From Candidatus Buchananbacteria bacterium RIFCSPHIGHO2_01_FULL_44_11 (GTDB lineage Bacteria; Patescibacteriota; Patescibacteriia; Buchananbacterales; UBA6539), in contig MHIE01000006.1 in NCBI GenBank assembly GCA_001817345.1, positions 1-59,568 of the forward strand: a DNA stretch of 59,568 bases. Reading direction: 5' to 3'. The stretch's first letter is position 1, and each line of letters starts with the position of its first letter. The notes under the pieces are model-generated. The model was not told where the DNA came from, made no database searches, and was given only the letters and a program-made list of their open reading frames with translations. Position numbers and translations under genes: made by a program. Positions 391-47,150 of this stretch are shown here, in pieces.

Positions 391-678
391 GGGGTTCAAC
401 ATCCTGGTGCTTTTAGCGAGAGGGCCACACCTGATCCCATCCCGCCCCGCCCTTTTATTTGGATATAGAGTTCCCGTGCTTTTAGCGAGAGGGTCACACC
501 TGATCCCATCCCGAACTCAGTAGTTAAGCCTCTCAGCGCCAATGATACTCTTTCAGGGGAAAGTAGGTCAGCGCGGGAACTTTGTATCTAAATAAAATAT
601 AAAAAGGGCGGGGAAGCCTCTCAGCGCCAATGATACTCTTTCAGGGGAAAGTAGGTCAGCGCCAGGATATTGAACCTC
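391..678 (+). rRNA. Outer 5S rRNA shell: 5' part 401-444 and 3' part 614-668, split by a 169-nt insert (445-613) that carries the inner 5S
   Basis: Both parts are near-identical to the inner 5S (one C/T difference, 425 vs 494). The shell has its own 10-bp helix I, ATCCTGGTGC/GCGCCAGGAT, extended by further pairing 391-400/669-678. It lacks 12 nt of loop C (AACTCAGTAGTT). Confidence 0.6.
471..579 (+). rRNA. rrf: 5S rRNA, intact inner copy
   Basis: Helix I TTCCCGTGC/GCGCGGGAA closes. CCGAACTCAGTAGTTAAGC (loop C region) and GCGCCAATGATACT align to bacterial 5S along the whole length (~109 nt). Confidence 0.85.
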
Positions 679-13288: not shown

Positions 13289-14071
13289 CTATAAGTTTTT
13301 AAGAATTGTAAAAAGTTTTTTGGTTAAAGCGTTGGTGCAGCCGGCCAGAAAGAAAGTTGAAAGATCTTTTTTGTCATCAAGGTTCTGAATTTTTCCGCCC
13401 GCCTCTTCCACGATAATTCTAGCGGCCGCGACGTCATAGAGGGCGACCCTGTTGGAAACAACCCCGTGGATTTTGCCTTCGGCCAGCCAGGCCAGTTCAA
13501 TGGCCGGTGCCCAGCTGTTGAGGACCCGAAAAATTCCTTTTTGGTATAGACTTTTTTGATTTTTAGGGTTAGTCATGTCATCTTTTGCGTTGACTTCCCA
13601 GCCCTGACTGTAAGCGACGATTGAGCCGGTCAGGTCTTGTTTTTTCGCCACTTGGATCCGCCGGCCGTTTTTGTAGGCACCGTTATTTTTTTGAGCCCAA
13701 AACAGCTGCTTTAAAACGGGAGCGTAAATTGCGCCGGCAATCATTTCGCCGTTTTTGATTACGCCGATTGAAGTCGTATACAAACCAGAGCCGATGGTGA
13801 AGTTGATGGTGCCGTCCAACGGATCAATGGCGAAGGTGTATTCCGACCCATTGTCTTCTGACCCCGACTCCTCAGCGATGATGTTAAAGTCGGGAAACTG
13901 TTTTTTCAAAATGCTTAAGATTTTTTTCTCTGAGGCCAGGTCAGCGCTGGTGCAGACGTCCCCGGTTGGTTTTTGTTTTCTTTCTACTGTTTTGTCAAAA
14001 AAACGGAGAGTGGCTTTTCCGCCCTCTTGCGCTGCTTCAATAATCGCCTTGAGAATATTTTTTTCGTTCAT
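13289..14071 (-). CDS. Inositol monophosphatase family protein (second paralog)
   Basis: FAIDPLDGTINF motif; 260 aa. Confidence 0.8.
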   Translation of the reverse strand: MNEKNILKAIIEAAQEGGKATLRFFDKTVERKQKPTGDVCTSADLASEKKILSILKKQFPDFNIIAEESGSEDNGSEYTFAIDPLDGTINFTIGSGLYTTSIGVIKNGEMIAGAIYAPVLKQLFWAQKNNGAYKNGRRIQVAKKQDLTGSIVAYSQGWEVNAKDDMTNPKNQKSLYQKGIFRVLNSWAPAIELAWLAEGKIHGVVSNRVALYDVAAARIIVEEAGGKIQNLDDKKDLSTFFLAGCTNALTKKLFTILKNL

Positions 14072-14088
14072 GATTTTTTTATTGAAAT

Positions 14089-14652
14089 TTAAATTTTGTT
14101 TGATTTTTTGATTAAAGAAAAAATAGTGATCATCAAAAAAGCGGTTAACGCCATCATAGGGATCGTGATGTAACCATAGTTGATAATACCAAAATTAGAA
14201 CAGGATTCAAGACCAGCGGTTCGGCAAAAAGGGGACGGAATGGCGGTCATTTGGAGGAAATAGTGGTAGCCGGCGATAACGGCACCAATTAAAGATAAGA
14301 CTAGGCTGTAATCAACGATATTTTTATCTTTTTTCCAGAGCGCCAGGCCTAATAATATTACCTGAGGGTACATTAGTATTCTTTGAAACCAGCAAAGTTT
14401 ACAAGGGACTAGCCCGACGATTTCCGAATAAAAAAGACTGCCTAAGGTGGCGATTAAAGCAACGACAAAAGCCAGAGCGATGCTGTTTTGCGAAATATTG
14501 TTTAAAAGCGGTTTAGTCGCCGCCTGCTTTTTGTAGATTAAAAAATACACCAGTATTAATATACTGATGACTTGTCCGATAATCGTGAGTAAAGACAGTA
14601 TTTGGTTGGCGGTTGGTATTAAATTTGTCATGTTATTTTCCATCCAATTCAA
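14089..14652 (-). CDS. Disulfide bond formation protein (DsbB/BdbC family)
   Basis: 4-TM protein with CKLCWFQRILMYP and a second Cys pair. Confidence 0.7.
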   Translation of the reverse strand: MNWMENNMTNLIPTANQILSLLTIIGQVISILILVYFLIYKKQAATKPLLNNISQNSIALAFVVALIATLGSLFYSEIVGLVPCKLCWFQRILMYPQVILLGLALWKKDKNIVDYSLVLSLIGAVIAGYHYFLQMTAIPSPFCRTAGLESCSNFGIINYGYITIPMMALTAFLMITIFSLIKKSNKI

Positions 14653-15274
14653 GCCTGAGCTCTTGTAAGAAATTGGTTAAGAACTTTGTCCTTCTTTTTG
14701 CTAATTCTCTCGCTTTTTTTGTATACATCATACCCTCAACTTTTAAGAGTCTAGTGTAAAATAAGTCTAACGCGTAGTTTTTGGGTGTTGGTTTTCTATT
14801 TTCACAAAACGGGTCATCTGGATTATAGAAAGGCCTCTTCATCTGTCCTGTAGAAGAAAAAGTTCTCATAATTGATATTGCCCCTGTCGCTTCTAATCGG
14901 TCTGCATCCTGCAATATTTTTGCTTCAATCAGGTTCGGGACAATGCTTTTAGAAAAAGAGCATTGTCTAATCGCCGTTTGAACTTTATCTATTTTATGTT
15001 TTGGATATTCTTTTATACTCATTAACAACCTTTGTGTATACTTCGCGCTTTTATCAGATTCATTCCTGCCACGCGGGTCATTTTTGGGATAGATAACAAC
15101 ATCATGAAATAGTGCGGCCGGAATAATAATGTCAAAATCTGCACCTTCGTCCTTAGCAATTTTTTCTGCAAGATCCAAGACTCTTACAGAATGTTGAAAA
15201 TCATGAGAGATGTCTTTAGTTGTTATTTTTTTCTTTGCTAGACGTATAAGCTTTTTTCGTAAGCCTTTTGTCAT
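14633..15274 (-). CDS. HD-domain phosphohydrolase
   Basis: HDFQHSVRV .. ALFHDV .. DADRLE. Confidence 0.7.
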   Translation of the reverse strand: MTKGLRKKLIRLAKKKITTKDISHDFQHSVRVLDLAEKIAKDEGADFDIIIPAALFHDVVIYPKNDPRGRNESDKSAKYTQRLLMSIKEYPKHKIDKVQTAIRQCSFSKSIVPNLIEAKILQDADRLEATGAISIMRTFSSTGQMKRPFYNPDDPFCENRKPTPKNYALDLFYTRLLKVEGMMYTKKARELAKRRTKFLTNFLQELRLELDGK

Positions 15275-15308
15275 ATTCTTAAAATAGGCATGTAACTACA
15301 AATAATTT

Positions 15309-15896
15309 TGGTGGACCGTGAGAGAGTTGCTCCGATCCCGACTTTACGTCGTGGATCGAGGATCCCGCCTTCTTTAATAAAAATAATTTGGTGGCGGGAA
15401 ACTCTCGACCTCCTGTTTGTCCCGATAAACTTTTGGACCGGAGCGGGGTCCCCGCCAGAGGCGGGTGCGCCTCTGGCGCAGAACCGTGCGGCCTCCACAT
15501 TGTCCCGACAAACTTTTGGACCGGAGCGGGGTCGAACCGCTTACCTCCACATTGCAAATGTGGCGTTCTACCAGGTGAACTACCGGCCCAAAAGTTTGTC
15601 GAGGATTCTCGACTACTTTTATTTGAAAAATTTGTAAGTCGGAACAAATGTGGTGCTCTAGCCAACTGAGCTACAGGCCCATTCTGAATTTTCGAGGATT
15701 CTCAACTACTTTAATTTATAAAAAACAGTAAGTCGGAACAAATGTGATGCTCTACCAGCTGAGCTACGGGCCCACCAAAGATATCGAGGATCCCGGTTTT
15801 TTAAAGTTTACAAATTAATGAGCCGGACAAATGTGGTATTCTAGCCTACTGCCTGCCCGCCGAAGCTCGGAGAGCGTAGGCGGGAGCTAACGGCCC
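15309..15896 (-). other. Concentric tRNA-Ala locus: three extra 5' exon-like pieces (15645-15680, 15739-15773, 15828-15896) and two extra 3' pieces (15434-15502, 15309-15419) around one intact tRNA-Ala
   Basis: See findings. All 5' pieces end ..C(A/C)CACATTTG and both 3' pieces start CAA. The outermost pair has a matching acceptor stem, GGGCCGT/ACGGTCC-A-CCA. Confidence 0.6.
15517..15589 (-). tRNA. tRNA-Ala(UGC), intact core copy
   Basis: GGGCCGGTAGTTCACCTGGTAGAACGCCACATTTGCAATGTGGAGGTAAGCGGTTCGACCCCGCTCCGGTCCA. It has the G3:U70 pair and anticodon loop TTTGCAA. CCA is not encoded. Confidence 0.85.
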
Positions 15897-15930
15897 AGGC
15901 TTTACAAACGCTTAACTTTAGTGGTTACTT

Positions 15931-16182
15931 TTAAATACCTGGGATGAGGATTTTGGCGATCATGTCCAGCACTGACTGAATCAAATTAGTCATAATCAGA
16001 AAGCCGAGAATACTGGCGAGAATGCCGATCAGTTTATAAGCCAACCGCGATCCACCTTCAGTCCCCAAGTATTTATCGGCCGAGGGGATGGCACCGAAAT
16101 TTTCATAAAACCATTCAGATTTGATGGTGACTAAGGCTCCGACAGCGGCAATGATCAAACCGAGAATAATTCGACCAAGCAT
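15931..16182 (-). CDS. Small membrane protein (2 TM), unknown function
   Basis: 83-aa ORF, hydrophobic at both ends. Confidence 0.4.
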   Translation of the reverse strand: MLGRIILGLIIAAVGALVTIKSEWFYENFGAIPSADKYLGTEGGSRLAYKLIGILASILGFLIMTNLIQSVLDMIAKILIPGI

Positions 16183-16255
16183 AGTGTTATAATTTTAAAT
16201 AACCAATTTTAAATTTTAAGTACTGGATATTTATTTATAATTTAATATTAACCGA

Positions 16256-16525
16256 TGGTGGGCAGCATAGGAATCCCCGCCAAAGGCGGGTGCGCCTTTT
16301 GAGCCAGAGGCTCATCTGCCTTTGGTATGAGGCGCAGAACCTATGACCTCTTCGGTGTAAATGAAGCGCTCCCCGCCCGTTTCGCCTTACCTGATTTATC
16401 AATGGGTTTGAGAGGAGTCGAACCTCTGACCTTCTCGGTGTAAACGAGACGCTCTAACCAACTGAGCTACAAACCCATAATACGGCGAAGCAAGGCGGGC
16501 GGGTAACCAGCTGAGCTAGCTGTCC
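16256..16525 (-). tRNA. Outer tRNA-Val(UAC)-like gene interrupted in the D-loop (insert 16371-16502, contains the inner tRNA-Val) and in the T-loop (insert 16276-16336)
   Basis: With the inserts removed it reads GGACAGC TA GCTC AGCTGGTTAC GAGC G CTTCA TTTACAC CGAAG AGGTC ATAGG TTCGATT CCTAT GCTGCCC A CCA. All four stems form, with A3.C70 and A31.C39 mismatches. Confidence 0.5.
16403..16476 (-). tRNA. tRNA-Val(UAC), intact inner copy
   Basis: GGGTTTGTAGCTCAGTTGGTTAGAGCGTCTCGTTTACACCGAGAAGGTCAGAGGTTCGACTCCTCTCAAACCCA. Confidence 0.9.
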
Positions 16526-16526
16526 T

Positions 16527-16610
16527 TGGTGCGGACGGAGGGACTCGCCCCGTCGAATGACGGGGCGCCCGATTGGATAATCGGGCGAACTCCTTTCTTA
16601 GTATAATTAC
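16527..16610 (-). pseudogene. tRNA-Leu-like 3'-end copy with hairpin insert
   Basis: TGGTGCGGACG is identical to the 3' end of the adjacent tRNA-Leu. It is followed by hairpins TCGCCCCGTCGAATGACGGGGCG and CCCGATTGGATAATCGGG, then GAACTCC. Confidence 0.5.
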
Positions 16611-16698
16611 TGGTGCGGACGAGAGGATTTGAACCTCCAAGGGATTGCTCCCACTAGCACCTCAAGCTAGCGCGTATACCAAGTTCCGCCACGTCCGC
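16611..16698 (-). tRNA. tRNA-Leu(GAG)
   Basis: Long variable arm, anticodon loop TTGAGGT, CCA encoded. Confidence 0.9.
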
Positions 16699-16780
16699 TG
16701 AGTCGACATTATGGCTCAAGAAAAAACATTGATGGTTTCGCCCGAGCCTTGTCATTGAGAAAAGTGGGGGAGAGGCGCTT

Positions 16781-17173
16781 TTACTTTTCAGTTAAGACTT
16801 TCTCTTTTAATCTTTTTTTGTAATTCCGCAAGTAATATAGTTTTGATTTACTCACCTGGGCCTGTTTAACCAGCTCAATTTTAACGACGTTTGGTGAGTT
16901 GAGAGGAAATATTTTTTCCACGCCAATGCCGTCAGAAATTTTTCTCACAGTGATTGTTGCTTCTTTCTCCTTACCGCTGCGGTGAGCCAAGACAATGCCT
17001 TCAAAAATTTGGACTCTTTCCTTTTCGCCTTTTGGTCCAAGTTCAGTGATTTTTTGATGCACCTTAATAGTCATCCCCGGTTTGATTGCCGGCAACGGTT
17101 CTTTGACAATTTTTTTAATTTGTCCTGTTTTTGCCTCTTTTTCAGCGGCGTTCTGTCCTTTTTTGTCGGCCAT
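16781..17173 (-). CDS. rplS: 50S ribosomal protein L19 with a ~30-aa N-terminal extension
   Basis: [48 protein letters not shown]. Confidence 0.9.
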
Positions 17174-17255
17174 AGAATTGATTGCAGTGGGTTAAACCCA
17201 AGCCTGAGTTACTTAATTATTAAAAAATTAATACCTCAAAACTATACGCTAAAAT

Positions 17256-17846
17256 TTAAAATAAGTCAACCCCCACACTCACCTCTTTTTTAATAATTGC
17301 CGCAACCGTGGCGGCGGCTTTTTCCGGATGGTCCTGTTCGTTTTCAATATAGTAATGAAAGTTAGCGTAGTCCTGGTGCCAGCGCTTGTTTTGTTCCAGC
17401 CGCTTGGCTAAGTCTTCTTTATGTTTGTCGCCCCGGCGGATCAGCCGTTCATTGAGTATTTCAATCGACGGAGGAGTGATGACAATAACTTTAGTTTCCG
17501 GGTATTGGCTTAAAATAGTCCGGGCGCCCTGGTAATCCATTTGCAGTAGTACACCCAGGTTGCCGTTGGCGACTTCCGCCAGTTCTTTATGAGTTGTGCC
17601 TTTCCAACTGTCAAAGACGCGGGCGTATTCGGCAAATTCACCCCGTTCAATCATTCCAGAAAATTCTTTTTCCGAAATAAAATAATAGGGTTGACCCTGG
17701 GTTTCACCAGCCCGCATTGGTCGCGATGTCGTGGTCGTGACGCGCTGCAGCGGCAAATTGTAACTTTGCATGTCGCGCATCACCGTGTCTTTGCCTACCC
17801 CCGAAGGTCCGGTGATGATAAAAATTTTATTGTTCCTTGTTGGCAT
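17256..17846 (-). CDS. gmk: Guanylate kinase
   Basis: GPSGVGKDT P-loop, TTTSRPMRAGE, YYFIS. Confidence 0.9.
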   Translation of the reverse strand: MPTRNNKIFIITGPSGVGKDTVMRDMQSYNLPLQRVTTTTSRPMRAGETQGQPYYFISEKEFSGMIERGEFAEYARVFDSWKGTTHKELAEVANGNLGVLLQMDYQGARTILSQYPETKVIVITPPSIEILNERLIRRGDKHKEDLAKRLEQNKRWHQDYANFHYYIENEQDHPEKAAATVAAIIKKEVSVGVDLF

Positions 17847-18801
17847 TGATAAAATCAGTCATTGATTTAGGCCAGGCAGAAACAAATTCCTGCCATTGGT
17901 TTTTTAGGTCATAAAATCCAATTTTGGTTGAGTGGAGCATAATCCGGTCGGCGGCAACTACTTTAATCCTTCGCCGCAAAAAATGAAAAATCTTTTTTTT
18001 CGGCTCGTAAATTTGGTCGCCGATGACCGGATGGCCCAGAGCCGAAAGGTGGACCCGGATTTGGTGGGTCCGGCCGGTCAGAATGTTAACTTTCAGCAGG
18101 CTGTAATTCTTTAGGTATTCTATCAGTTCGTATTTGGTTTTGGCAATTTTATCGCTGGCTTGGAATTTTTCATCTCCCTTTTTAGGGTGAGCCACGAACT
18201 GACCGTCTTTGTTGCGGCCAATTGGCAGATCAATTTCACCTTTCGGCTGAGAAACCCGGCCGTAGACAACGGCGGTGTATTCTTTTTTGACTACTCGTTT
18301 TTTGAATTGCTCTTTAAGGTGATTAAAAGCCGTCTGGGTTTTAGCTACCACCATTACCCCGGACACGTCTTTATCCAGCCGATGAATAATGCCGGCCCGG
18401 TACTGATTTTCGCCGACCGATTTTATCGCCGGGTATTTTTTGGCCAGCCAGGCGACCAAAGTTTCTTTTTCGCCCCGGGCCGTCGGGTGGACTAATAAGC
18501 CGCTGGGTTTTTCTATGACCAAAAAGTCTTGGTCTTGAAAAATGATATTCGGCGTCAGGTTTTGGCCCGTCATTTGTCCAGTTATTTCCGGTCTAGCGAC
18601 AACCGACTTTTTAATAACCTGGATCTGATCGCCGGTTTTAAGAAAGTAGTGCGGGCTGACGATTTTATCATTAACTAAAACCAAACCGGCCTTGATTATT
18701 TTTTTAATTTGCGAACGCGACAAACTCTTGATTTTTTCGTTAAGAAATTTATCAAGTCTTTGGCCTTGCGCTGCCGGTTTAATTTTTAGAATTTGAGCCA
18801 T
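17827..18801 (-). CDS. RluA-family 23S rRNA pseudouridine synthase (RluD-like) with S4 domain
   Basis: HRLDKDVSGVMVVAK, GRTHQIRVH. Confidence 0.85.
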   Translation of the reverse strand: MAQILKIKPAAQGQRLDKFLNEKIKSLSRSQIKKIIKAGLVLVNDKIVSPHYFLKTGDQIQVIKKSVVARPEITGQMTGQNLTPNIIFQDQDFLVIEKPSGLLVHPTARGEKETLVAWLAKKYPAIKSVGENQYRAGIIHRLDKDVSGVMVVAKTQTAFNHLKEQFKKRVVKKEYTAVVYGRVSQPKGEIDLPIGRNKDGQFVAHPKKGDEKFQASDKIAKTKYELIEYLKNYSLLKVNILTGRTHQIRVHLSALGHPVIGDQIYEPKKKIFHFLRRRIKVVAADRIMLHSTKIGFYDLKNQWQEFVSAWPKSMTDFINANKEQ

Positions 18802-23496: not shown

Positions 23497-23593
23497 TGGT
23501 GGGCGCACGTGGATTTGTCCCGATCCCGACTTTACGTCGTGGATCGAGGATCCCGCCTTCTTTTTAAAAATAGTAGTGGCGGGAAACCATTGG
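23497..23593 (-). pseudogene. tRNA 3'-end copy (..AAATCCACGTGCGCCCACCA) with a 67-nt T-loop insert (23518-23584)
   Basis: The insert is nearly identical to 15330-15399. No matching 5' half was found. Confidence 0.5.
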
Positions 23594-23611
23594 CCTTGTA
23601 TATGATAATTA

Positions 23612-23688
23612 TGGTGGGCTCGTGCAGATTTGAACTGCAGACCTCGTCGATGTCAACGACGCGCTCTAACCAACTGAGCTACGAGCCC
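23612..23688 (-). tRNA. tRNA-Val(GAC)
   Basis: GGGCTCGTAGCTCAGTTGGTTAGAGCGCGTCGTTGACATCGACGAGGTCTGCAGTTCAAATCTGCACGAGCCCACCA. Confidence 0.9.
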
Positions 23689-23798
23689 TCTTGCTAGATG
23701 TTATTTTTGTTTTTTGTTAGTTACCAATATAGCCTAAAAAAAATTCTTTGGCAAGATTAACGTTTTCAGACAATGGGCCACGTCTTTCGCGAAAGACG

Positions 23799-23968
23799 TG
23801 GTGGGCATGCCCGGATTCGTCCCGATTTTGTCCAAATCTTTGATTTGGTCACAAAATCGAGGATCTCACCGCCGTCGGCGGGACCCCGCCCATGGCGGTG
23901 GCCGCCTTTATTGAAAATAATTAATGTGGCGGGAAACTAGGAGCCACCGCCTTGTCTCAAGCATTTAA
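23799..23968 (-). pseudogene. tRNA 3'-end copy (..GAATCCGGGCATGCCCACCA) with a 115-nt T-loop insert (23820-23934), leading into the helix that carries tRNA-Ile
   Basis: Same module order as 15330-15399 and 23518-23584: GTCCCGA..TCGAGGA, then CCCGCC..GGCGGG. Confidence 0.45.
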
Positions 23969-24040
23969 TGCGCGCACCTGGATTCGAACCAAGAACCACC
24001 GCCTTATAAGGGCGGTGCTCTACCATTGAGCTATGCGCGC
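23969..24040 (-). tRNA. tRNA-Ile(UAU)
   Basis: GCGCGCATAGCTCAATGGTAGAGCACCGCCCTTATAAGGCGGTGGTTCTTGGTTCGAATCCAGGTGCGCGCA. Anticodon loop is CTTATAA. It is flanked by a perfect 14-bp inverted repeat. Confidence 0.75.
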
Positions 24041-24185
24041 ATTAAATGCTTGAGGAACTAATGGTTGCCTTTATATTATATGGATTAATTGGAGCTAAGT
24101 AAATCTATCCATGGAATCGCGTCGCTCGGCTCAAATGGACATTTACGCCCATTTGACTCCTCGCTAGCAATTATAACCACCTAAG

Positions 24186-25322
24186 TTATTTTTTACCAAT
24201 GTTGTATTTGATTTCTTCAATCACGGTTTTTTCCGCGGCCAGAAGCGTGGTGCCGGTCAGGGAGAAAGTGGCGACATTTTTTGTTCCTTCTGGCCGGAAA
24301 GTTTTTGCCAGATACAGGGCATTGTGATTTTTCAAGGCGTTAATCAGCACCTTAACTTGGCCGTTGAGCTGATAGATCAAGATCACCACTTCGACGCCGG
24401 GGATGAAAGATATCAATTCCTCCACCACGTCGGGCAAATCTTTTTGATCGGCCTGGGAATCAAGAAAATCGTGGTCGGTTAAAAGCGACCAGATCAATTT
24501 ATTGCTGTCGTCGCTTTTTAGGCGGGCTAGCGTCCGGCCCCATAAATTTAAAGTCGCCAGGGTCCGGCTGCGGTATAAGTTTTTAACGATGGTTTGTTGG
24601 TCGGCTTCCAGTATCAAAAGTTGGCTGGCCGCTTCTAAAGTTTTAGGTCTCACGTTGGCCGTTTTGAAGCTTCTGGTTTTAGCCACTAGACCGGTCAAAA
24701 GGCAAGTGGCAATCGGCTGGTCCAGTAAGTTTTCTCCCAGACCGTTGATTAATTCAAAAACCATTTCGGCGGTCGCTACCGCGTTGGGGTCGGTCAGGTT
24801 GATTTGGCCGAATTGCTCATTTTCCGACTTGTGGTCGATATTAATAATCGTTGTATTATAAAAAAATTCAGTTGACTTCTGGTAGATAGTGCCCAAAGAG
24901 TCCAGGTCGGCAGTATCTAAAACAAAAATTAAATCATATTTATATTCTGAACTTTCGGTTTTAATATCCTCGACATTAATGGTTCCGTCTTTTGGCGTCA
25001 AGTAAATTTTTAATCCGTCACCTTCAATGTTGTAATTAAACTGATCAATATTTTCTTTGCCGCCGGCAATTTTAATAATCAGTTTTTGGAGATTAGCCAG
25101 CCGCGGGCTGATTTTTTCCGCCTGAGGCAAGAATCTGAGGTTTTTGGGCAGGTCAAAGCCGTCACAGACAATATCAACCAATTTACCTTTTTTTTGCAAA
25201 ATTAAATAAAGCGCTAAAGCGCTGGCGACGGCATCAACCGAGTAATCTTTATCAAAAGTAATTAAAGCGTGACGACTCTGGTTGATTTCTTTTTCAATTT
25301 GTTGAACTTCGTTTAAGGCCAT
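24186..25322 (-). CDS. DHH-family phosphoesterase (NrnA-like)
   Basis: 378 aa with DHH/DHHA1-like layout (SVDAVASALAL, NIDHKSE). Confidence 0.6.
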   Translation of the reverse strand: MALNEVQQIEKEINQSRHALITFDKDYSVDAVASALALYLILQKKGKLVDIVCDGFDLPKNLRFLPQAEKISPRLANLQKLIIKIAGGKENIDQFNYNIEGDGLKIYLTPKDGTINVEDIKTESSEYKYDLIFVLDTADLDSLGTIYQKSTEFFYNTTIINIDHKSENEQFGQINLTDPNAVATAEMVFELINGLGENLLDQPIATCLLTGLVAKTRSFKTANVRPKTLEAASQLLILEADQQTIVKNLYRSRTLATLNLWGRTLARLKSDDSNKLIWSLLTDHDFLDSQADQKDLPDVVEELISFIPGVEVVILIYQLNGQVKVLINALKNHNALYLAKTFRPEGTKNVATFSLTGTTLLAAEKTVIEEIKYNIGKK

Positions 25323-25715
25323 AGTTTCAGTAAATTCGAAGCACCAAATCCTAAATTCGAAACAATATCAAAATTCAAATGCCCAATGTTTTAAACGCTT
25401 TGAATTTGTCCCGACTTCGTCGAGGATCCTCGATTACATCGGGATTTAGGATTTAGACTCGCCTCGCCGGAGCTACGGCGAAGCCGGGGTTGGGATTTCG
25501 GATTTAGAAATTATTTAATTATACCTTTTTTTGGGGAATCTGTCATTGTAATCATTTGCCCAGAATGTGTCAAGGGTAGGCCAGTTTGACCCTAAAAATT
25601 TGCAAAAAACCTGGAAATTAGCTAAAATAAAAGTATCAAAGCGGATTTATCCAGTTTTGGCTGGGGTTTAAAATCGCCTATTTTAAATGTATAATCAAAG
25701 GGTTAATCAGTAAAC

Positions 25716-28427
25716 ATGAGTAATCAGGAAATTCCCAAAGTCTACGAACCAAAAAACGTTGAAGACTCTATCTACAAAAAGTGGGAAGAGTCTGGTTTTT
25801 TTAATCCCGATAATCTACCCGGCCATCGGCCGAAAGCTTTTAGCATTGCCATGCCGCCGCCCAACGCCACCGGCGTGCTGCACATCGGCCATGCCGAGTT
25901 TATTACGATTCAAGACTTGGTGATTCGTTATCAAAGAATGCTGGGCAAGAAAACTTTGTGGCTGCCGGGCACTGACCACGCCGCCATTGCGACCCAGACT
26001 AAAGTGGAAAAATTAATCAAGGCCAAAGACGGCAAGTCTCGGCATGACTTGGGCCGGGAAGAGTTTTTAAAGCGAGTCAAAACCTTTGTGGTGGAGTCCC
26101 AAAATACCATCCGCAATCAAATCCGAAAAATGGGGTCGAGCTGCGACTGGTCGCGAGAACGCTACACGCTTGACAGCGGTTTGACCAAAGCCGTTAATGA
26201 AGCTTTTGTCCGGATGCATAAAGACGGGTTGATTTATCGGGGCAACCGGATTGTTAACTGGTGTCCGCGGTGCCAATCAACTTTAGCGGATGACGAAGTG
26301 GAATATCGGGAACAAAAAGCGCCGTTCTACTATTTTAAATATGGACCGGTGGTAATCGGCACCGCCCGGCCGGAAACCAAATTTGGCGATAAGGTGATTA
26401 TTGTCCATCCCGATGACAAACGCTATAAAGATTTGGTTGGCCAAGAGCTGCCGGTGGAGTGGATTTTAGGACCGATTACCGCCAAAGTGATTGCCGATCC
26501 AGTAGCGGAGATGGATTTAGGTAGTGGCGCCATGACAATTACCCCTGGCCACAGCTTTGTTGATTTTGAACTGGCTCAAAAATATCATTTACCGATCGAA
26601 AAAATCATTAACGAAAAAGGAGAGCTGACTCAAGTCGCCGGCTCGTTTGCCGGTCTGGACGTTGCCACCGCCCGGCATAAAGTTTTTGAATTGCTGAAAA
26701 GTAAAGGACTAGTTGATCACGTTGACGAAAATTACGTTCACAATCTTTCTGTTTGCTATCGGTGTGATACGCCGGTAGAGCCGCTGGTTTCAGAGCAGTG
26801 GTTTATCGCTGTTAATAAACCGATCAAAAAATTTGGCGGCAAATCTTTAAAGGAGCGGGCTTTGGCCGTAGTCAAAGACAGCCAAGTGGAAATTGTTCCG
26901 GAACGGTTTAAAAAAGTCTATTATCACTGGCTGGAGAATTTACGGGACTGGTGTATCAGCCGGCAAATTTGGTTTGGCCACCGCATACCCGTTTACTACC
27001 GTAAACGGGAAAATCCGAAATCCTCCGCCAAAGGCGGATCCGCCTCCGGCGGGAAAACTCAAAACTCAAAACTGGATAAAAGTCTAACGGAAGATGAAGT
27101 TTACGTCGGCTCTACGCCTCCGGCGGGCGAAGGCTGGCAACAAGACCCCGATACTCTCGACACCTGGTTTTCGTCGGGCCTCTGGACTTTTTCGACGCTC
27201 GGCTGGCCGGAGAAGACTAAGGATCTGAAGACGTTTCATCCAACATCGCTGATGGAAACCGGTTATGACATTTTATTTTTTTGGGTGGCGCGGATGATCA
27301 TTATGTCCACCTATTTGATGGATCAGGTGCCGTTTCAGCAGGTTTATCTTCACGGTTTGGTTCGCGACGAACAAGGCCGGAAAATGTCAAAATCTTTAGA
27401 TAACATTATTGATCCCCTGGAGGTGATCAAAAAGTTTGGCGCTGACGCCGTTCGTTTGAGTTTATTGATTGGCGTCACACCGGGTAATGACCTGAATTTG
27501 GCGGAAAGTAAAATTGCCGGCGCCCGGAATTTTATCAATAAACTTTGGAACATTTCGCGCTATATTTTAATGACTACTAAAAAGCCCGAACTGATTGAGA
27601 CGCGGCCAAAACCAAAAACTTTGGCTGATCAGTGGATTTTGGATGAATTAACCGTTTTGCAAAGTACGGTCACCACCCACCTTGATGCTTATCAATTTTC
27701 TATGGCCGGGGAGGCGATTTATGAATTCAGTTGGTCAAAATTCGCCGACTGGTATTTGGAGATCGCTAAAATTGAAGGCGGCAAAGACGACATTTTGCTT
27801 TATGTTCTGCAGAACTTATTAAAACTTTGGCATCCTTTTACGCCTTTTGTCACTGAGCGGATTTGGGCGATGATTGATCCCAACGGTAAGCCCAAAGCGC
27901 TTTTGATGGTGGAGTCCTGGCCTCAGGTTAGCCGCCAGGTCAGTAGTCGCGAAACCAAAGTGGTTAAGGATTTCAATTTGGTTCAGCAGGTTGTCTCCAC
28001 TATTCGCAATCTGCGGGCCGAGAGTAATATTGCGCCGGGCAAACTTTTGACCGCCATTATCGTGGCTGGCCCTAAGGTTAAAATAATCAAAGACCAGTCA
28101 GAGGTAATTAAGTCCCTGGCCCGTCTTGGCGAGCTTGAGGTTTTAGTCAAAGGCAAAAAGCCGGCCGGCTCTCTTTCCGCTTTGGCGGCCGGCCTGGAGA
28201 TTTATTTGCCGGTTTCTGATATGATAGACATAGGTAAAGAAGTTTCTCGGTTAAACTTGGAAGTCAAGCGTGTCAAAGATTTTATCATTCATCTGGAAAA
28301 TAAACTCCAGAATCAAAAGTTTTTGGAACGGGCGCCGAAAAATATTATTGCCAATGAGCAAAAAAAGCTGGAGGAAAATAAAGAGAATCTGGGAAAAATC
28401 CAGCAGCAGTTAAAAAGTTTAAAATGA
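25716..28427 (+). CDS. valS: Valyl-tRNA synthetase
   Basis: PPPNATGVLHIGHA, KMSKSLDN, C-terminal coiled coil. It carries an in-frame hairpin insert at 27024-27054. Confidence 0.95.
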   Translation: MSNQEIPKVYEPKNVEDSIYKKWEESGFFNPDNLPGHRPKAFSIAMPPPNATGVLHIGHAEFITIQDLVIRYQRMLGKKTLWLPGTDHAAIATQTKVEKLIKAKDGKSRHDLGREEFLKRVKTFVVESQNTIRNQIRKMGSSCDWSRERYTLDSGLTKAVNEAFVRMHKDGLIYRGNRIVNWCPRCQSTLADDEVEYREQKAPFYYFKYGPVVIGTARPETKFGDKVIIVHPDDKRYKDLVGQELPVEWILGPITAKVIADPVAEMDLGSGAMTITPGHSFVDFELAQKYHLPIEKIINEKGELTQVAGSFAGLDVATARHKVFELLKSKGLVDHVDENYVHNLSVCYRCDTPVEPLVSEQWFIAVNKPIKKFGGKSLKERALAVVKDSQVEIVPERFKKVYYHWLENLRDWCISRQIWFGHRIPVYYRKRENPKSSAKGGSASGGKTQNSKLDKSLTEDEVYVGSTPPAGEGWQQDPDTLDTWFSSGLWTFSTLGWPEKTKDLKTFHPTSLMETGYDILFFWVARMIIMSTYLMDQVPFQQVYLHGLVRDEQGRKMSKSLDNIIDPLEVIKKFGADAVRLSLLIGVTPGNDLNLAESKIAGARNFINKLWNISRYILMTTKKPELIETRPKPKTLADQWILDELTVLQSTVTTHLDAYQFSMAGEAIYEFSWSKFADWYLEIAKIEGGKDDILLYVLQNLLKLWHPFTPFVTERIWAMIDPNGKPKALLMVESWPQVSRQVSSRETKVVKDFNLVQQVVSTIRNLRAESNIAPGKLLTAIIVAGPKVKIIKDQSEVIKSLARLGELEVLVKGKKPAGSLSALAAGLEIYLPVSDMIDIGKEVSRLNLEVKRVKDFIIHLENKLQNQKFLERAPKNIIANEQKKLEENKENLGKIQQQLKSLK

Positions 28428-37557: not shown

Positions 37558-38118
37558 ATGAAATGTTCAATTTTTATTGATGGCAATAACTTTTATAAAG
37601 GTGCCAAGAAGTTAATTAATGACAATACGATTAGTTTGCTTCATTTTGATTATACAAAATTTTGCCATTTTCTATGTCGAAGCAACAATTATGTTAGAGC
37701 AAGATATTATATCGGTGCTCTGAGTAGGGGTGGTGATGTTAAGTCAGAAGAAATGTATGCCAATCAGCAAAGATTAATAGGCCTACTCCAAACACATAAT
37801 ATCCCTACGGTTTTAGGAACTATTATTAAACATCCAGATGGTTCCTTTCATGAAAAGGGTGTTGATGTGCGAATTGGAATTGAGATGATTAAATTTGCTC
37901 GTTTAGATGAATATGACCAAGCGATATTAATTAGCTCAGATACAGATTTAGTTCCAGCTGTTGAAGAAGTAAAAACCTTTGGTAAAGAAGTTCTGTATGT
38001 TGGTTTCCCTTCAAATCAATCATTTGGTCTTACAAAAACTTCTGATAGTCTATTGTTGCTCAGAAAGGATGATTTAATGAATTTTTTTCCTCCAACAACT
38101 CAGAAGCTTGGTATATAG
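37558..38118 (+). CDS. NYN-domain (LabA/DUF88-like) predicted ribonuclease
   Basis: CSIFIDGNNFY, GVDVRI, ILISSDTDLVPAVEEV. Confidence 0.75.
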   Translation: MKCSIFIDGNNFYKGAKKLINDNTISLLHFDYTKFCHFLCRSNNYVRARYYIGALSRGGDVKSEEMYANQQRLIGLLQTHNIPTVLGTIIKHPDGSFHEKGVDVRIGIEMIKFARLDEYDQAILISSDTDLVPAVEEVKTFGKEVLYVGFPSNQSFGLTKTSDSLLLLRKDDLMNFFPPTTQKLGI

Positions 38119-38278
38119 ATATTATTTATTTTTATAATAAAAACCTCCCATTGCTGGGAGATTTTTTATCCTCGGATTTCGAGCAATATAACTCAGAGGC
38201 CAAGGTGGCAGATGGGGCAGGCGAGCCCACGACCGCCCCGACATTTTTAGCTTTTCGCTGAGTCTAAAACAACAAAGG

Positions 38279-38350
38279 GGTGACCAGAGGGAATTGAACC
38301 CTCGTCAAGGGTGCCACAAACCCTTGTGTTACCACTACACCATGGTCACC
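38279..38350 (-). tRNA. tRNA-His(GUG) with encoded G-1
   Basis: G-GTGACCA..anticodon loop TTGTGGC..TGGTCAC-C. It is flanked by the 12-bp inverted repeat ACAACAAAGGGG/CCCCTTTGTTGT. Confidence 0.85.
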
Positions 38351-38469
38351 CCTTTGTTGTCTAGATGAAAAAAGCCGATACGTTTTATTTTAAATTATAA
38401 ATTTTAAATAAAATCTCAATATTATAATATTTAATTAAAATTTAAAATTAATTATTGAAAATTGTTTTC

Positions 38470-38554
38470 TGGTGCACCCGACAGGATTTCCCGCCCGAGA
38501 CGGGTCCGCCTTCTTGTTTTCTTATTAAGGTGGGCGGAGAACCTTAGCCGGTAG
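38470..38554 (-). pseudogene. Copy of the tRNA-Arg(CCG) T-loop-to-CCA end with a 49-nt T-loop insert (38490-38538)
   Basis: TGGTGCACCCGACAGGATTT is identical to 38555-38574. The insert holds TCCGCC..GGCGGA and CCCG..CGGG hairpins and ends before GAACC. Confidence 0.6.
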
Positions 38555-38631
38555 TGGTGCACCCGACAGGATTTGAACCTGTAACCCTCAGCTCCGGAAG
38601 CTGATGCTCTATCCAGTTGAGCTACGGGTGC
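38555..38631 (-). tRNA. tRNA-Arg(CCG)
   Basis: GCACCCGTAGCTCAACTGGATAGAGCATCAGCTTCCGGAGCTGAGGGTTACAGGTTCAAATCCTGTCGGGTGCACCA. Confidence 0.9.
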
Positions 38632-38668
38632 TAACGCTTTGGCGGGTAAAAATTTCACCCCGTCTCAC

Positions 38669-38737
38669 TTGCTCCCAGCAGGAATCTCCGCCAGAGGCGG
38701 ATCCGCCCCTTTAGAATTTATAGGATGGCGGAGAACC
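38669..38737 (-). pseudogene. Orphan tRNA 3'-end fragment (..GATTCCTGCTGGGAGCA) with a 46-nt T-loop insert
   Basis: Hairpins TCCGCCAGAGGCGGA and TCCGCCCC..GGCGGA lie between GAATC and GAACC. There is no 5' half. Confidence 0.45.
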
Positions 38738-38802
38738 GTGATAGGCGAGTAGTGTGTCCAATTCCGCCAAAAAGTGGAATAATCTTTTTCTGTTATAACC
38801 AT

Positions 38803-38874
38803 TGCCCCCGGGAGGAATCGAACCTCCATCTAGAGCTTAGAAGGCTCCCATTCTATCCGTTGAACTACAGGGGC
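38803..38874 (-). tRNA. tRNA-Arg(UCU)
   Basis: GCCCCTGTAGTTCAACGGATAGAATGGGAGCCTTCTAAGCTCTAGATGGAGGTTCGATTCCTCCCGGGGGCA. Confidence 0.85.
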
Positions 38875-39207
38875 GTAAAACAAAATGATACTACTATAAA
38901 ATTAAGCTTTAGTCAACCAGCCAGCCGCTGCTGATGCAGCGGAAATATCAAATTACAAATTTTAATCCCCAAACAATTTTCAAAATCCAAAATTTAGTCA
39001 TGGCAGTTTTTGATGGTTGGGATTTATTGGCGACGTAGGGCGAGTGTCCGCCTGAGGCGGACCGAATTTAGCTAGCCAAAAAGGGTGTAATACCCCGTCC
39101 CGTATATAGTAAACTTAAAGCCTCTACGGGACTGCGTAAGAAGTGGACAGAGCAAGCTCTGCGGTCAATACCCTTTATTTGAGATTTGGTGCTTGAAAAT
39201 TCGTTTT

Positions 39208-40068
39208 TTACCTATATTTCCTGGTAGTTAAAATCGAAGAATGACCGAGTAAATTTTTGACCTGCTGCAAATCCGTGCCTTCTTTAATTAAATAGCTGGC
39301 AATGGTGTGACGGATAATCCTTGGGTTGACCGGATTTTTTATGCCCACCGCCCGGGCGTATGCCTGAATCAGACGCTGAATGCTTCTGGCTGTGATTGCT
39401 TTAATTTTACCCGGCCGAGTGGCCCGGTCGTGGCGGATGAATAAAAACGGCGACTGATCTTTTCTTTCAGCTAAATATTTTTTTAGCCAAAATTTAGCCT
39501 GGTTTGATATAAATACCTTTCTGGGTTTTTGCTTTTTGCCTAAAACCACAAAATCGTCGCGTTCTAATCTAACCTCCTGGGTGCGTAAATTGGCCAATTC
39601 AGATACGCGCAGGCCAGAGGCGAAAAGCAGCTCCAGCATCGCCTTATCGCGCCACTGAATGATTTTTGGCTGTTTGATTCTTAAAGGGGACTCTAACAAT
39701 CTTTCCAATTCCGAATTTTCCAGCCGACTAATTTTTCTATTGGGCAGCCTGGCTAATTTGATTTGTTCGGCCTTCAAGCTTGTTTGGTTTTGCCAATATT
39801 TTAAAAATGATCTTAAAGCGATCAGATGGTAGTTTTTGGTTGAGCCGGCCAAAGTTCGGCCAAAGCGGTTAGCTTGTTTATCTAGCCAGAGCCGGTATTG
39901 GTTGATTAATTTATCGTCCAGCTGACTGAGGTTAGTAATTTTTGAGGCTAATAAAAACCGCTTTAAATAAAAATCATAATTTTTTATTGTCGCCAAGCTT
40001 AGGTGGTCTTGATTTTTAAGATGGCTTAAAAATTTTTCTATTAATGGCGTAATGGCAAGTAACTTCAT
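39208..40068 (-). CDS. Tyrosine recombinase, XerC/XerD-like
   Basis: ASGLRVSELANL, HTIASYL, LLGHSSILTTRKY (catalytic Tyr near the C-terminus). Confidence 0.8.
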   Translation of the reverse strand: MKLLAITPLIEKFLSHLKNQDHLSLATIKNYDFYLKRFLLASKITNLSQLDDKLINQYRLWLDKQANRFGRTLAGSTKNYHLIALRSFLKYWQNQTSLKAEQIKLARLPNRKISRLENSELERLLESPLRIKQPKIIQWRDKAMLELLFASGLRVSELANLRTQEVRLERDDFVVLGKKQKPRKVFISNQAKFWLKKYLAERKDQSPFLFIRHDRATRPGKIKAITARSIQRLIQAYARAVGIKNPVNPRIIRHTIASYLIKEGTDLQQVKNLLGHSSILTTRKYR

Positions 40069-46800: not shown

Positions 46801-47082
46801 ATGAAAAATTATTATATCTATATTATTACTAATCAAAGAAACAACGTTTTATATACCGGTGTTACCAATGACCTAAATAGGAGGATATATGAACATAAAA
46901 ATAAATTAATACCGGGTTTCAGCCATAAGTACAATTTAAACAAATTGGTTTATTATGAGGAATCTAATGGTATCTACAATGCAATCATTAGAGAAAAGCA
47001 GATTAAGAATTGGCACAGGGAATGGAAGGTTAATCTGATTACGAGCGTTAACCCTCGCTGGGAGGATTTATACATCTTATAG
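46801..47082 (+). CDS. GIY-YIG nuclease superfamily protein (UPF0213-like)
   Basis: YYIYIITNQRNNVLYTGVTNDLNRRIYEHK. Confidence 0.8.
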   Translation: MKNYYIYIITNQRNNVLYTGVTNDLNRRIYEHKNKLIPGFSHKYNLNKLVYYEESNGIYNAIIREKQIKNWHREWKVNLITSVNPRWEDLYIL

Positions 47083-47084
47083 TT

Positions 47085-47150
47085 GTGTCATTCTAAACTT
47101 GTTTCAGAATCTGAATCAAGAAGAGATCCTGAAATAAATTCAGGATGACA
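47085..47150. repeat. Paired-hairpin repeat (MITE-like), copy 2
   Basis: GTGTCATTCTAAACTTGTTTCAGAATC ... GATCCTGAAATAAATTCAGGATGACA. Confidence 0.5.

Follow-up and report, generated by a model that had tools for sequence, protein, structure and literature searches.

In Allomyces, according to what is reported from the work of Paquin and Lang on atp6 and double-hairpin elements (DHEs), mobile endonuclease open reading frames (ORFs) insert at gene ends and bring a replacement end, lying beside double-hairpin elements. A GIY-YIG ORF is said to have come with a duplicated piece of its target, the old piece being left as a pseudogene, and the double-hairpin repeats reportedly occur also alone as miniature copies, including inside rRNA genes. 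Islands and prophages of tyrosine integrases target the anticodon or T loop of tRNA genes, restore the gene with their own 3' part and leave the old 3' end downstream. We compare with such systems a family of hairpin elements lodged in tRNA genes of Candidatus Buchananbacteria bacterium RIFCSPHIGHO2_01_FULL_44_11, on a contig of 59,568 nucleotides (MHIE01000006.1, analyzed at full length and hereafter called the window). The composite member of this family is, in our judgment, probably the miniature of a GIY-YIG homing cassette found widely in Patescibacteria, or Candidate Phyla Radiation (CPR) bacteria; having lost both ORF and cargo, it would be non-autonomous and would have landed ectopically in the T loops of dead tRNAs.

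The likeness to the Allomyces elements is one of architecture and extends to the duplication of gene ends in protein genes (loci L223 and L228, see below); the present elements differ in being bacterial, in having tRNA loops as their main targets, in placing a complete replacement gene inside the old one and in nesting recursively. Unlike integrase islands, they have no integrase, measure only ~0.4 kb, duplicate 5' halves and whole genes and carry hairpins at their junctions. SegB of phage T4 (PMC2330249) is likewise a GIY-YIG gene adjoining tRNA genes, without a self-splicing intron, which spreads with neighbouring sequence into genomes lacking the gene. However, the nuclease considered here has 80-84 amino acids (aa), comprises the catalytic domain alone with a predicted cleavage activity, and belongs to a CPR bacterium rather than a phage, while its gene sits in a hairpin-bounded slot within the target tRNA gene and travels with a whole spare tRNA. 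The disrupted tRNA genes of archaea (PMC4033280, PMC4090602) also have inserts in D, anticodon and T loops, several per gene, with stems that unite the halves and related inserts at different sites, whereas our bacterial case lacks a bulge-helix-bulge motif, shows decay of the interrupted genes together with an ever-present intact copy, and has an insert that carries a nuclease gene plus a tRNA. Finally, Rickettsia palindromic elements (RPE) and the hairpin elements of sponge mitochondria (PMC2800124) are similar short hairpin repeats, tolerated within genes, that occur between genes, inside RNA genes and in frame within a protein gene, but the miniatures described here share their ends with an ORF-bearing parent and occupy nucleotide-exact positions in tRNA loops. 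No description of nested or interrupted tRNA genes, of nested 5S genes or of this element in CPR, nor of GIY-YIG nucleases in connection with tRNA loops, was found in the open-access literature, and the element class is apparently undescribed so far.

The window is bacterial, containing the 3' end of a 23S gene and a 5S gene, and its nearest relatives are all Patescibacteria. It matches contig MHIP01000006.1 of a CPR/Patescibacteria metagenome-assembled genome (GCA_001817575.1), with identical contigs in ENA and Logan. ARAGORN calls eight tRNAs, all on the minus strand, which is thus the tRNA sense in which the inserts are read; in the tRNA clusters (15309-16700, 23497-24041 and 38277-38874) the intact tRNAs are accompanied by pieces of a second tRNA of like kind. 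The original prediction, made from the sequence of the window alone, had placed a composite insert between T55 and C56 (hereafter T55/C56, the slash marking the interrupted bond) at three sites and in one order, and our analysis bears this out at every coordinate. The layout is a T, hairpin A (CCCGCC, an AT-rich loop, GGCGGG), an A, and a bulged hairpin B reading TCCTCGA..TCGGGA; every composite starts directly after T54 T55, and its TCGGGA end is followed by C56. Copy c1 (15399-15330, minus strand) lies between GAGAG-TT and CAA-CTCTC, the T loop being partly decayed, and consists of T, hairpin A with a 23-nt AT-rich loop, A, and hairpin B as TCCTCGATCCACGAC-GTAAA-GTCGGGATCGGAG; its host is the outermost tRNA-Ala remnant (covariance-model score 73 bits, for the model introduced below). 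Copy c2 (23584-23518, minus strand) lies between AATGG-TT and CAAATCC in a 3' remnant (..CAAATCCACGTGCGCCCACCA) downstream of intact tRNA-Val(GAC), with no 5' half present, and copy c3 (23934-23820, minus strand) between CCTAG-TT and CGAATCC in the remnant of a 3' half that follows intact tRNA-Ile(TAT). The near-identity proposed for c1 and c2 amounts to 90% over 59 nt (repeat family D12), with unrelated flanks, and c3 is indeed a longer version that has the same ends, an extra GC-rich hairpin and a longer hairpin B. All three fold into two hairpins with z-scores of -3.3 to -4.3. Their hosts had been taken for tRNA 3' ends; they are remnants of disrupted genes and not the 3' ends of the intact tRNAs called by ARAGORN. 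Other genomes use the same bond too: it is occupied in L131 and L229, and probably also in the complex nest of L230, in every case within an outer tRNA that was already interrupted.

The backbone of the composite recurs elsewhere, as shown by a covariance model trained on c1-c3 and two copies from other metagenomes, whose recovery is expected by construction. Matches outside this training set are 15503-15644 (E=1.7e-4), where hairpin B encloses an intact tRNA-Ala, and 25409-25444 (E=0.008), together with L131 619-777 and L172 1145-1217 in other genomes; a further match at 15682-15738 (E=0.12) is not significant alone and was called a copy from reading the sequence. The window then holds seven backbone copies. 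The one at 15503..15644 (minus strand) interrupts tRNA-Ala 5' half 3 at G35/C36 and reads T, hairpin A as TCCGACTTAC..GTAGTCGAGA, A, TCCTCGA-CAAACTTTT, intact tRNA-Ala (15517-15589), AAAAGTTTG-TCGGGA, after which C36 follows. An older copy is represented by its left part (15692..15738, minus strand), with hairpin A and TCCTCGA after Ala 5' half 2 and the right arm lost. The oldest has its left part at 15784..15827 (minus strand; T CCGG..CCGG GA TCCTCGA, after Ala 5' half 1) and its right arm TCGGGA at 15420-15425. A minimal copy of 36 nt (25409..25444, minus strand) reads TCCCGA-TGTAA-TCGAGGA TCCTCGAC-GAA-GTCGGGA before CAAATTC and is intergenic, with no recognisable tRNA around it. Window copies at T55/C56 and G35/C36 share hairpin A, the linking A, TCCTCGA and TCGGGA; on this sequence evidence, the T-loop composite appears to be the empty form of the insert that carries a working tRNA-Ala.

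These data modify the preference that had been proposed for the T loop: T55/C56 is used exactly and recurrently, but the main site is G35/C36 of tRNA-Ala, occupied three times in the window and at eight related loci, while the backbone is found in tRNA-Thr at 35/36 in two cases and at 39/40 in a third. Copies outside tRNA contexts do exist, at two protein-gene ends and in the spacer at 25409-25444, even if tRNA loops clearly dominate; in part, then, the outcome that was to refute the original prediction has been observed. Site-specific insertion of one family at an exact position, as opposed to random spread of repeats, is retained in the form of a preference that involves several sites, and recombination at GGTTC, the other mechanism once suggested, is not needed for the composite. 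We rejected homology-facilitated illegitimate recombination at GGTTC, which accounts for neither the hairpins nor the nesting, and also tandem-duplication models, which cannot yield a 5' half, a gene and a 3' half in succession with complementary flanks. Scans of metagenomes and viruses with the pattern CCCGCCN{12,40}GGCGGGATCCTCGA gave over 120 matches, nearly all of them due to chance in GC-rich contigs; the genuine ones were L125, L131 and L172 alone, and no match in the viral scan looked real.

The composite had been presented as a small non-coding element, a description that does not hold for its relatives, in which it forms the shell of a mobile element that codes for protein, hairpin A enclosing a GIY-YIG ORF and hairpin B a tRNA. 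A flanking stem (..TCGGGACAA) around tRNA-Ala is common to the window and to loci L001, L002 and L010, and in L010 the loop of hairpin A extends to ~300 nt and encodes an intact GIY-YIG protein of 84 aa. This protein has 336 homologous matches at E<=1e-8, and all those with a named source come from Patescibacteria. Nine loci were examined in their contigs, L010 and eight more from the list of homologues (L231 and L232 being counted as one). All nine (L010, L222, L223, L225, L227-L230 and L231/L232) show the arrangement T(C)CCGA-ORF-TCGAGGA followed directly by TCCTCGA-slot B-TCGGGA. The ORFs in slot A are intact, encode 80-84 aa that comprise only the GIY-YIG catalytic domain and match Pfam PF01541 with E=1e-13 to 5e-20. 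At seven of the nine loci (L010, L222, L225, L227, L229, L230 and L231/L232) slot B contains a complete tRNA-Ala, and on either side of the element stands one half of another tRNA-Ala that is interrupted at 35/36. The other two lie at ends of protein genes, namely the 3' end of ligA (L223, 1170-1500) and the 5' end of an unknown ORF (L228, 975-1290), with a duplicated, slightly different copy of the gene end on the far side of the element; free-standing homing endonuclease genes are known to insert in this way, at gene ends and with the end duplicated. In L172 and L131, copies that lack the ORF enclose a tRNA-Thr nested within another tRNA-Thr. The same architecture is seen in more than 15 unrelated contigs, full elements measuring ~0.4 kb and inserts ranging from 30 to 440 nt, and insertion is precise, without target-site duplication. 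Among the sampled loci, five of the six small GIY-YIG ORFs found by phmmer outside the window are inside tRNA nests or duplications. The seventh is a free-standing ORF of the window that encodes 92 aa (46804-47082, plus strand), lies outside any tRNA and is followed by a different double hairpin (GTCATTCTAAAC..GATCCTGAAATAAATTCAGGATGAC) at 47085-47150, a similar but ORF-less double hairpin being present at 837-905, downstream of the 5S nest described below.

Comparison of genomes documents both mobility and decay. At the orthologous L19-Leu-Val-Ala locus, the window, L001, L002, L010 and L227 have an insertion, whereas in L003, L004 and L016 the site is empty. An identical protein of 84 aa (P0058) is encoded in L231, L232 and L233, in which the outer tRNA-Ala and the cargo differ and the neighbours partly differ. 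Moreover, L231 has one layer more than L232, and the remnant of the outer gene of L232 is the outermost in L231, which attests directly to serial invasion in which the newest copy comes to lie innermost. In L225 and L227 the ORF is intact and the outer 3' half is destroyed or truncated, while the outer halves of L001 are barely recognisable. The outer genes are not maintained, even beside an intact ORF.

The same history can be read in the window, where the tRNA-Ala nest is three deep and nesting also affects tRNA-Val and 5S rRNA. The order within 15309-15896 is Ala 5' halves 1, 2 and 3, intact tRNA-Ala, 3' half 1 and 3' half 2. The 5' halves end at ..CCACATTTG and the 3' halves begin with CAA, which places the breaks at G35/C36. 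The outermost halves retain perfectly complementary acceptor strands (GGGCCGT and ACGGTCC). 5' half 1 (15828-15896, minus strand) has a GC-rich hairpin insert in its D loop (13/14; 15851..15883, minus strand), and 5' half 2 lies at 15739-15773 (minus strand). 3' half 1 (15434..15502, minus strand) carries a double hairpin at C56/G57 (15451-15480), after which its sequence is identical to the 3' end of intact tRNA-Ala (repeat D1). 3' half 2 (15309..15419, minus strand), the outermost remnant and host of c1, keeps G3:U70 and CCA, although its anticodon stem no longer pairs with any 5' half. An outer tRNA-Val(TAC) (16256..16525, minus strand) is divided into a 5' piece (16504-16525) and a 3' piece (16256-16371) by a D-loop insert (16372-16503) that is closed by CCCGCCCG/CGGGCGGG and encloses intact tRNA-Val(TAC) (16402-16477); its 3' piece has a double hairpin at C56/G57 (16276-16336). 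When inserts were removed in silico, ARAGORN recognised the outer Val as a tRNA-Val with two A.C mismatches, one outer Ala gave a tRNA-Ala with a T stem of 3 bp and an acceptor mismatch, and the outermost Ala was not recognised as a normal tRNA. Because removal of inserts gives ever poorer tRNAs outward, decay grows from the inside out. In the nested 5S rRNA (402..667, plus strand) the outer 5' part (402-444) is separated from the outer 3' part (614-667) by an intact inner 5S (472-579), with CCCCGCCC (445-452) before it and GGGCGGGG (606-613) after it as closing arms. The older, outer gene is split in loop C and its helix I differs from that of the inner copy by compensating changes, but it lacks 12 nt of loop C/helix III and is consequently non-functional. 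A survey of 645 CPR 5S genes found no insertions >=100 bp (PMC11270868), a silence that may arise because a model search picks the inner copy.

Interrupted tRNA copies are therefore dead, displaced remnants beside or around an intact copy of the same isoacceptor. The inner tRNAs (Ala, Ile and Val-TAC) have no encoded CCA, and the host remnants of c1, c2 and c3 and the outer tRNA-Val(TAC) end in CCA, which hints that the incoming tRNA copies derive from another lineage or element pool than the resident genes.

From this arrangement we infer a mechanism in which the target is cleaved, repair brings about homing and the miniatures are mobilised in trans. The full element has a nuclease gene in slot A (T(C)CCGA ... 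TCGAGGA) and a complete tRNA gene in slot B (TCCTCGA ... TCGGGA), both slots being bounded by hairpins, and sits in a loop of a tRNA gene of like isoacceptor, mainly at G35/C36 of tRNA-Ala, so that the host gene is split and the working copy is supplied by the element. The nuclease would break an uninterrupted target gene, and repair would then copy the cassette from a donor with the split outer halves serving as homology arms. The cargo tRNA would keep the cell alive and make loss of the element costly. Since the cargo is itself an uninterrupted target, the process could recur inside it and produce nests resembling Russian dolls. Recombination between the repeated halves would remove layers, as in the window with its three 5' halves and two 3' halves. 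T-loop copies would represent ectopic insertions of ORF-less derivatives at T55/C56, a site that resembles the home site (GGTT/CRA versus TTTG/CAA, each in a 7-nt loop on a 5-bp stem). They are seen only in dead tRNAs because insertion would kill a live one, and in dead outer tRNAs they would cost nothing and hence persist. One possibility, no more than a conjecture, is that the enzyme, reduced to its catalytic domain, finds targets by the shape of DNA (cruciform or cloverleaf loops) and not by sequence, which would explain why every breakpoint lies in the loop of a stable-RNA gene.

Several observations weigh against the derivation of the composite from a homing cassette. No window copy contains the ORF, the link depending on architecture and termini that are shared with other genomes. 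Hairpin A of c1-c3 has the stem CCCGCC/GGCGGG and not TCCCGA/TCGAGGA, and exact agreement with the ORF-bearing form is limited to the junction (TCGAGGA/TCCTCGA) and hairpin B. A DNA-binding domain is absent from the nuclease, whose cutting of tRNA genes is a prediction. The cargo tRNA equals the split host around the insertion site (L172, L222) and could itself be cut. Some outer copies are structurally perfect, with compensatory pair changes with respect to the inner copy (L172 at 4:69; L058 in the acceptor and T stems), even if recent insertion of a foreign allele explains these (L172, L058, L222) as well. Lastly, no empty site was found at the population level for the copies of the window: comparison of ten contigs with an identical L19 protein, in search of empty sites among strains, found no indels and Ns in one record only.

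One alternative is that we deal with generic GC-rich palindromic miniature repeats, akin to repetitive extragenic palindromes (REP), RPE or mitochondrial GC clusters, which would persist wherever the sequence can be dispensed with, and that the link with GIY-YIG is incidental, the nuclease gene having simply landed in such hairpins. This possibility, which we regard as unlikely, draws its force from the absence of the ORF in the window, from the intergenic minimal copy and from the coexistence of several unrelated hairpin families (YCCGCC, TGCGCC, GCCCGA and TCCYCGA). 

Four double hairpins of other families than the composite had been assigned to its T-loop position; they do lie in T loops (15451-15480, 16276-16336, 38490-38538 and 38687-38732), but exactly between C56 and R57. 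A fifth, absent from the original prediction, is likewise at C56/R57 (16547-16586), and such agreement of all five on a single bond of a ~75-nt molecule far exceeds what chance would give. Besides those in the Ala and Val nests, the hosts are a tRNA-Leu 3' remnant (16527..16594, minus strand) downstream of intact tRNA-Leu(GAG), with a double hairpin of 20+20 nt at C56/G57; a tRNA-Arg(CCG) remnant (38470..38543, minus strand) formed by GGTTC, the double hairpin and a 3' end of 20 nt in which it agrees fully with the intact gene (38555-38631); and a tRNA-Arg-like remnant (38670..38740, minus strand) formed by GGTTC, the double hairpin and GATTCCTGCTGGGAGCA, downstream of intact tRNA-Arg(TCT). 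Neither the Arg remnants nor the Leu remnant is accompanied by a 5' half. With regard to hairpin-ended single-strand transposons of the IS200/IS605 type and REP/RAYT repeats, which insert 3' of a fixed tetra- or pentanucleotide, these double hairpins follow ..TTC without target duplication, and no HUH (TnpA/RAYT) transposase was seen in the elements examined, the ORFs of the window not having been scanned exhaustively for it.

A double hairpin of the same family as those in the T loops also supports generic repeats, in that it lies in frame within the gene of valyl-tRNA synthetase (ValRS; ORF 25716-28427). It measures 30 nt (27024-27053, plus strand; TCCGCC AAA GGCGGA TCCGCC TCC GGCGGG) and encodes ..SSAKGGSASGG.. 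in a segment that is ~16 aa longer than in the Thermus enzyme. Against incidental association, all nine GIY-YIG homologues occupy the same slot of the same backbone with conserved termini in distant genomes, the positions 35/36, 55/56 and 56/57 are exact to the nucleotide, and the isoacceptor of the cargo always matches the host. In addition, L131 has a second GIY-YIG ORF that is bracketed by arms of the other double-hairpin type, as the inverted repeat GCGCAGAAC/GTTCTGCGC, of which the GTTC before the hairpins is part; this ORF sits between an intact tRNA-Tyr and the sequence GGTTC, double hairpin, old 3' end. L131, a single locus, suggests that the double hairpins at C56/R57 constitute a second, parallel type of element of the same kind.

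Another interpretation would take the inserts as true RNA introns: RNase P/Z would free the inner tRNA, the hairpins would be excised, and the outer exons would be ligated or base-paired, leaving the interrupted genes functional as a new class of bacterial tRNA intron. Insertion is indeed precise, in RNA loops and without target duplication, each insert folds into a closed stem by which the exon ends come to lie side by side, and one stem in L002 uses G.U pairs that are sensible only in RNA. The structurally perfect outer copies with compensatory differences (L172, L058, L222) and the recognition by ARAGORN of the outer tRNA-Val and of one tRNA-Ala after removal of inserts also fit functional genes. 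Nevertheless, outer copies decay, as seen in the A.C mismatches, the 3-bp T stem, the unrecognisable outermost Ala and the destroyed halves of L225 and L227; the c2, Arg and Leu remnants have no 5' half; and 12 essential nucleotides are missing from the outer 5S. The interrupted gene always has an intact one of the same isoacceptor within it or at its side, the element also invades the ends of protein genes and leaves them duplicated, and inspection of the junctions reveals no bulge-helix-bulge, with no pair of 3-nt bulges 4 bp apart but only self-closing hairpins with 1-nt bulges on one strand. Regarding a group I or II core, Rfam matched no intron or ribozyme family, whether in 15200-16900 (E<=10) or in four full elements (E<=1), and altogether it identified only tRNA, 5S and 23S, with no intron, ribozyme or known small RNA. 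No splicing endonuclease or RNA ligase was seen among the ORFs scanned in the 59.6-kb window, a search that does not cover the rest of the genome. We thus give little credence to introns, and just as little to the variant in which cassettes would be removed at the RNA level, a nuclease trimming the stems once RNase P and RNase Z have freed the inner tRNA, and a ligase such as RtcB would rejoin recently invaded outer tRNAs (L172, L222, L232), which would still work. If true, this would amount to a protein-dependent bacterial tRNA intron carrying a nuclease gene and another tRNA.

The remnants could also be attL/attR scars of integrative elements with a tyrosine recombinase, the interiors of which were later deleted. 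tRNA 3' ends are repeated directly downstream of intact genes, with identity over 17-20 nt in two cases, the breakpoints fall in the two loops favoured by integrases, and the gene of a Xer-like recombinase (39208-40068) adjoins one cluster. This recombinase, however, scores as a housekeeping type resembling XerC/D/A, hairpins interrupt the would-be repeated core, 5' halves, whole nested genes and 5S are duplicated too, an outcome foreign to integrase sites, and the full elements in relatives have ~0.4 kb and encode GIY-YIG instead of an integrase, making such scars a very improbable origin. (Small GC hairpins at 39047-39061, minus strand, TCCGCC TGA GGCGGA, and at 38925-38942, CCGCTGCTGATGCAGCGG, are situated upstream of tRNA-Arg(TCT), between it and this recombinase gene.)

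Chance resemblance or an assembly artefact, which could be invoked for the many contigs that end 100-450 nt from the L19 gene and for the Ns inside one double hairpin of the NCBI record, has virtually no likelihood given that ten assemblies agree, that the covariance model finds copies outside its training set and that more than 15 unrelated contigs share the architecture. The ten assemblies (from ENA, NCBI and Logan) are independent and agree base for base over 14000-18000, apart from Ns in one of them, which rules out an artefact of assembly. The NCBI record of the window contig has 16 Ns exactly within one double hairpin (16286-16301; L082), and many short contigs with the same L19 gene stop 100-450 nt downstream of it; the nests seem to break short-read assemblies.

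Interpreted as miniatures of a homing cassette, the composites would reveal a widespread class of selfish elements of the ultra-small CPR bacteria which, by carrying a replacement along, is able to invade essential RNA genes present in single copy, and whose repeated invasion builds genes nested within older genes. This would give a testable role to the very common small GIY-YIG proteins that have the catalytic domain alone and suggests a route for the horizontal replacement of tRNA and 5S genes in CPR bacteria. It would also provide a bacterial counterpart to the connection, long debated, of mobile elements with archaeal tRNAs that are split or contain introns. On the practical side, tRNA halves and hairpins of this sort confuse tRNA counts and pseudogene calls and can be mistaken for introns.

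Minor features complete the description of the tRNA regions. An ORF of 128 aa (15279-15665, minus strand) crosses the whole tRNA-Ala nest and is almost certainly spurious. Genes adjoining the tRNA clusters encode an HD phosphohydrolase (14633-15274, minus strand), a DHH protein similar to NrnA (24186-25322, minus strand) and an NYN-domain protein (37558-38118, plus strand); we considered them as processing enzymes and rejected the idea, as nothing ties these genes to the elements. In L045, a free-standing ORF of the LAGLIDADG type (390-1046) lies between the L19 gene and tRNA-Leu, and the same genome has a tRNA-Val(TAC) nested in the anticodon loop of another tRNA-Val(TAC) and closed by a CCCCGTCACTT/AAGTGACGGGG stem. 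Lastly, tRNA-His of the window (38266-38360, minus strand), around which outer halves are not visible, has an 8-nt inverted repeat in its leader and trailer (ACAACAAA / TTTGTTGT) that abuts the acceptor stem in the same way as the stems of the nested tRNAs.

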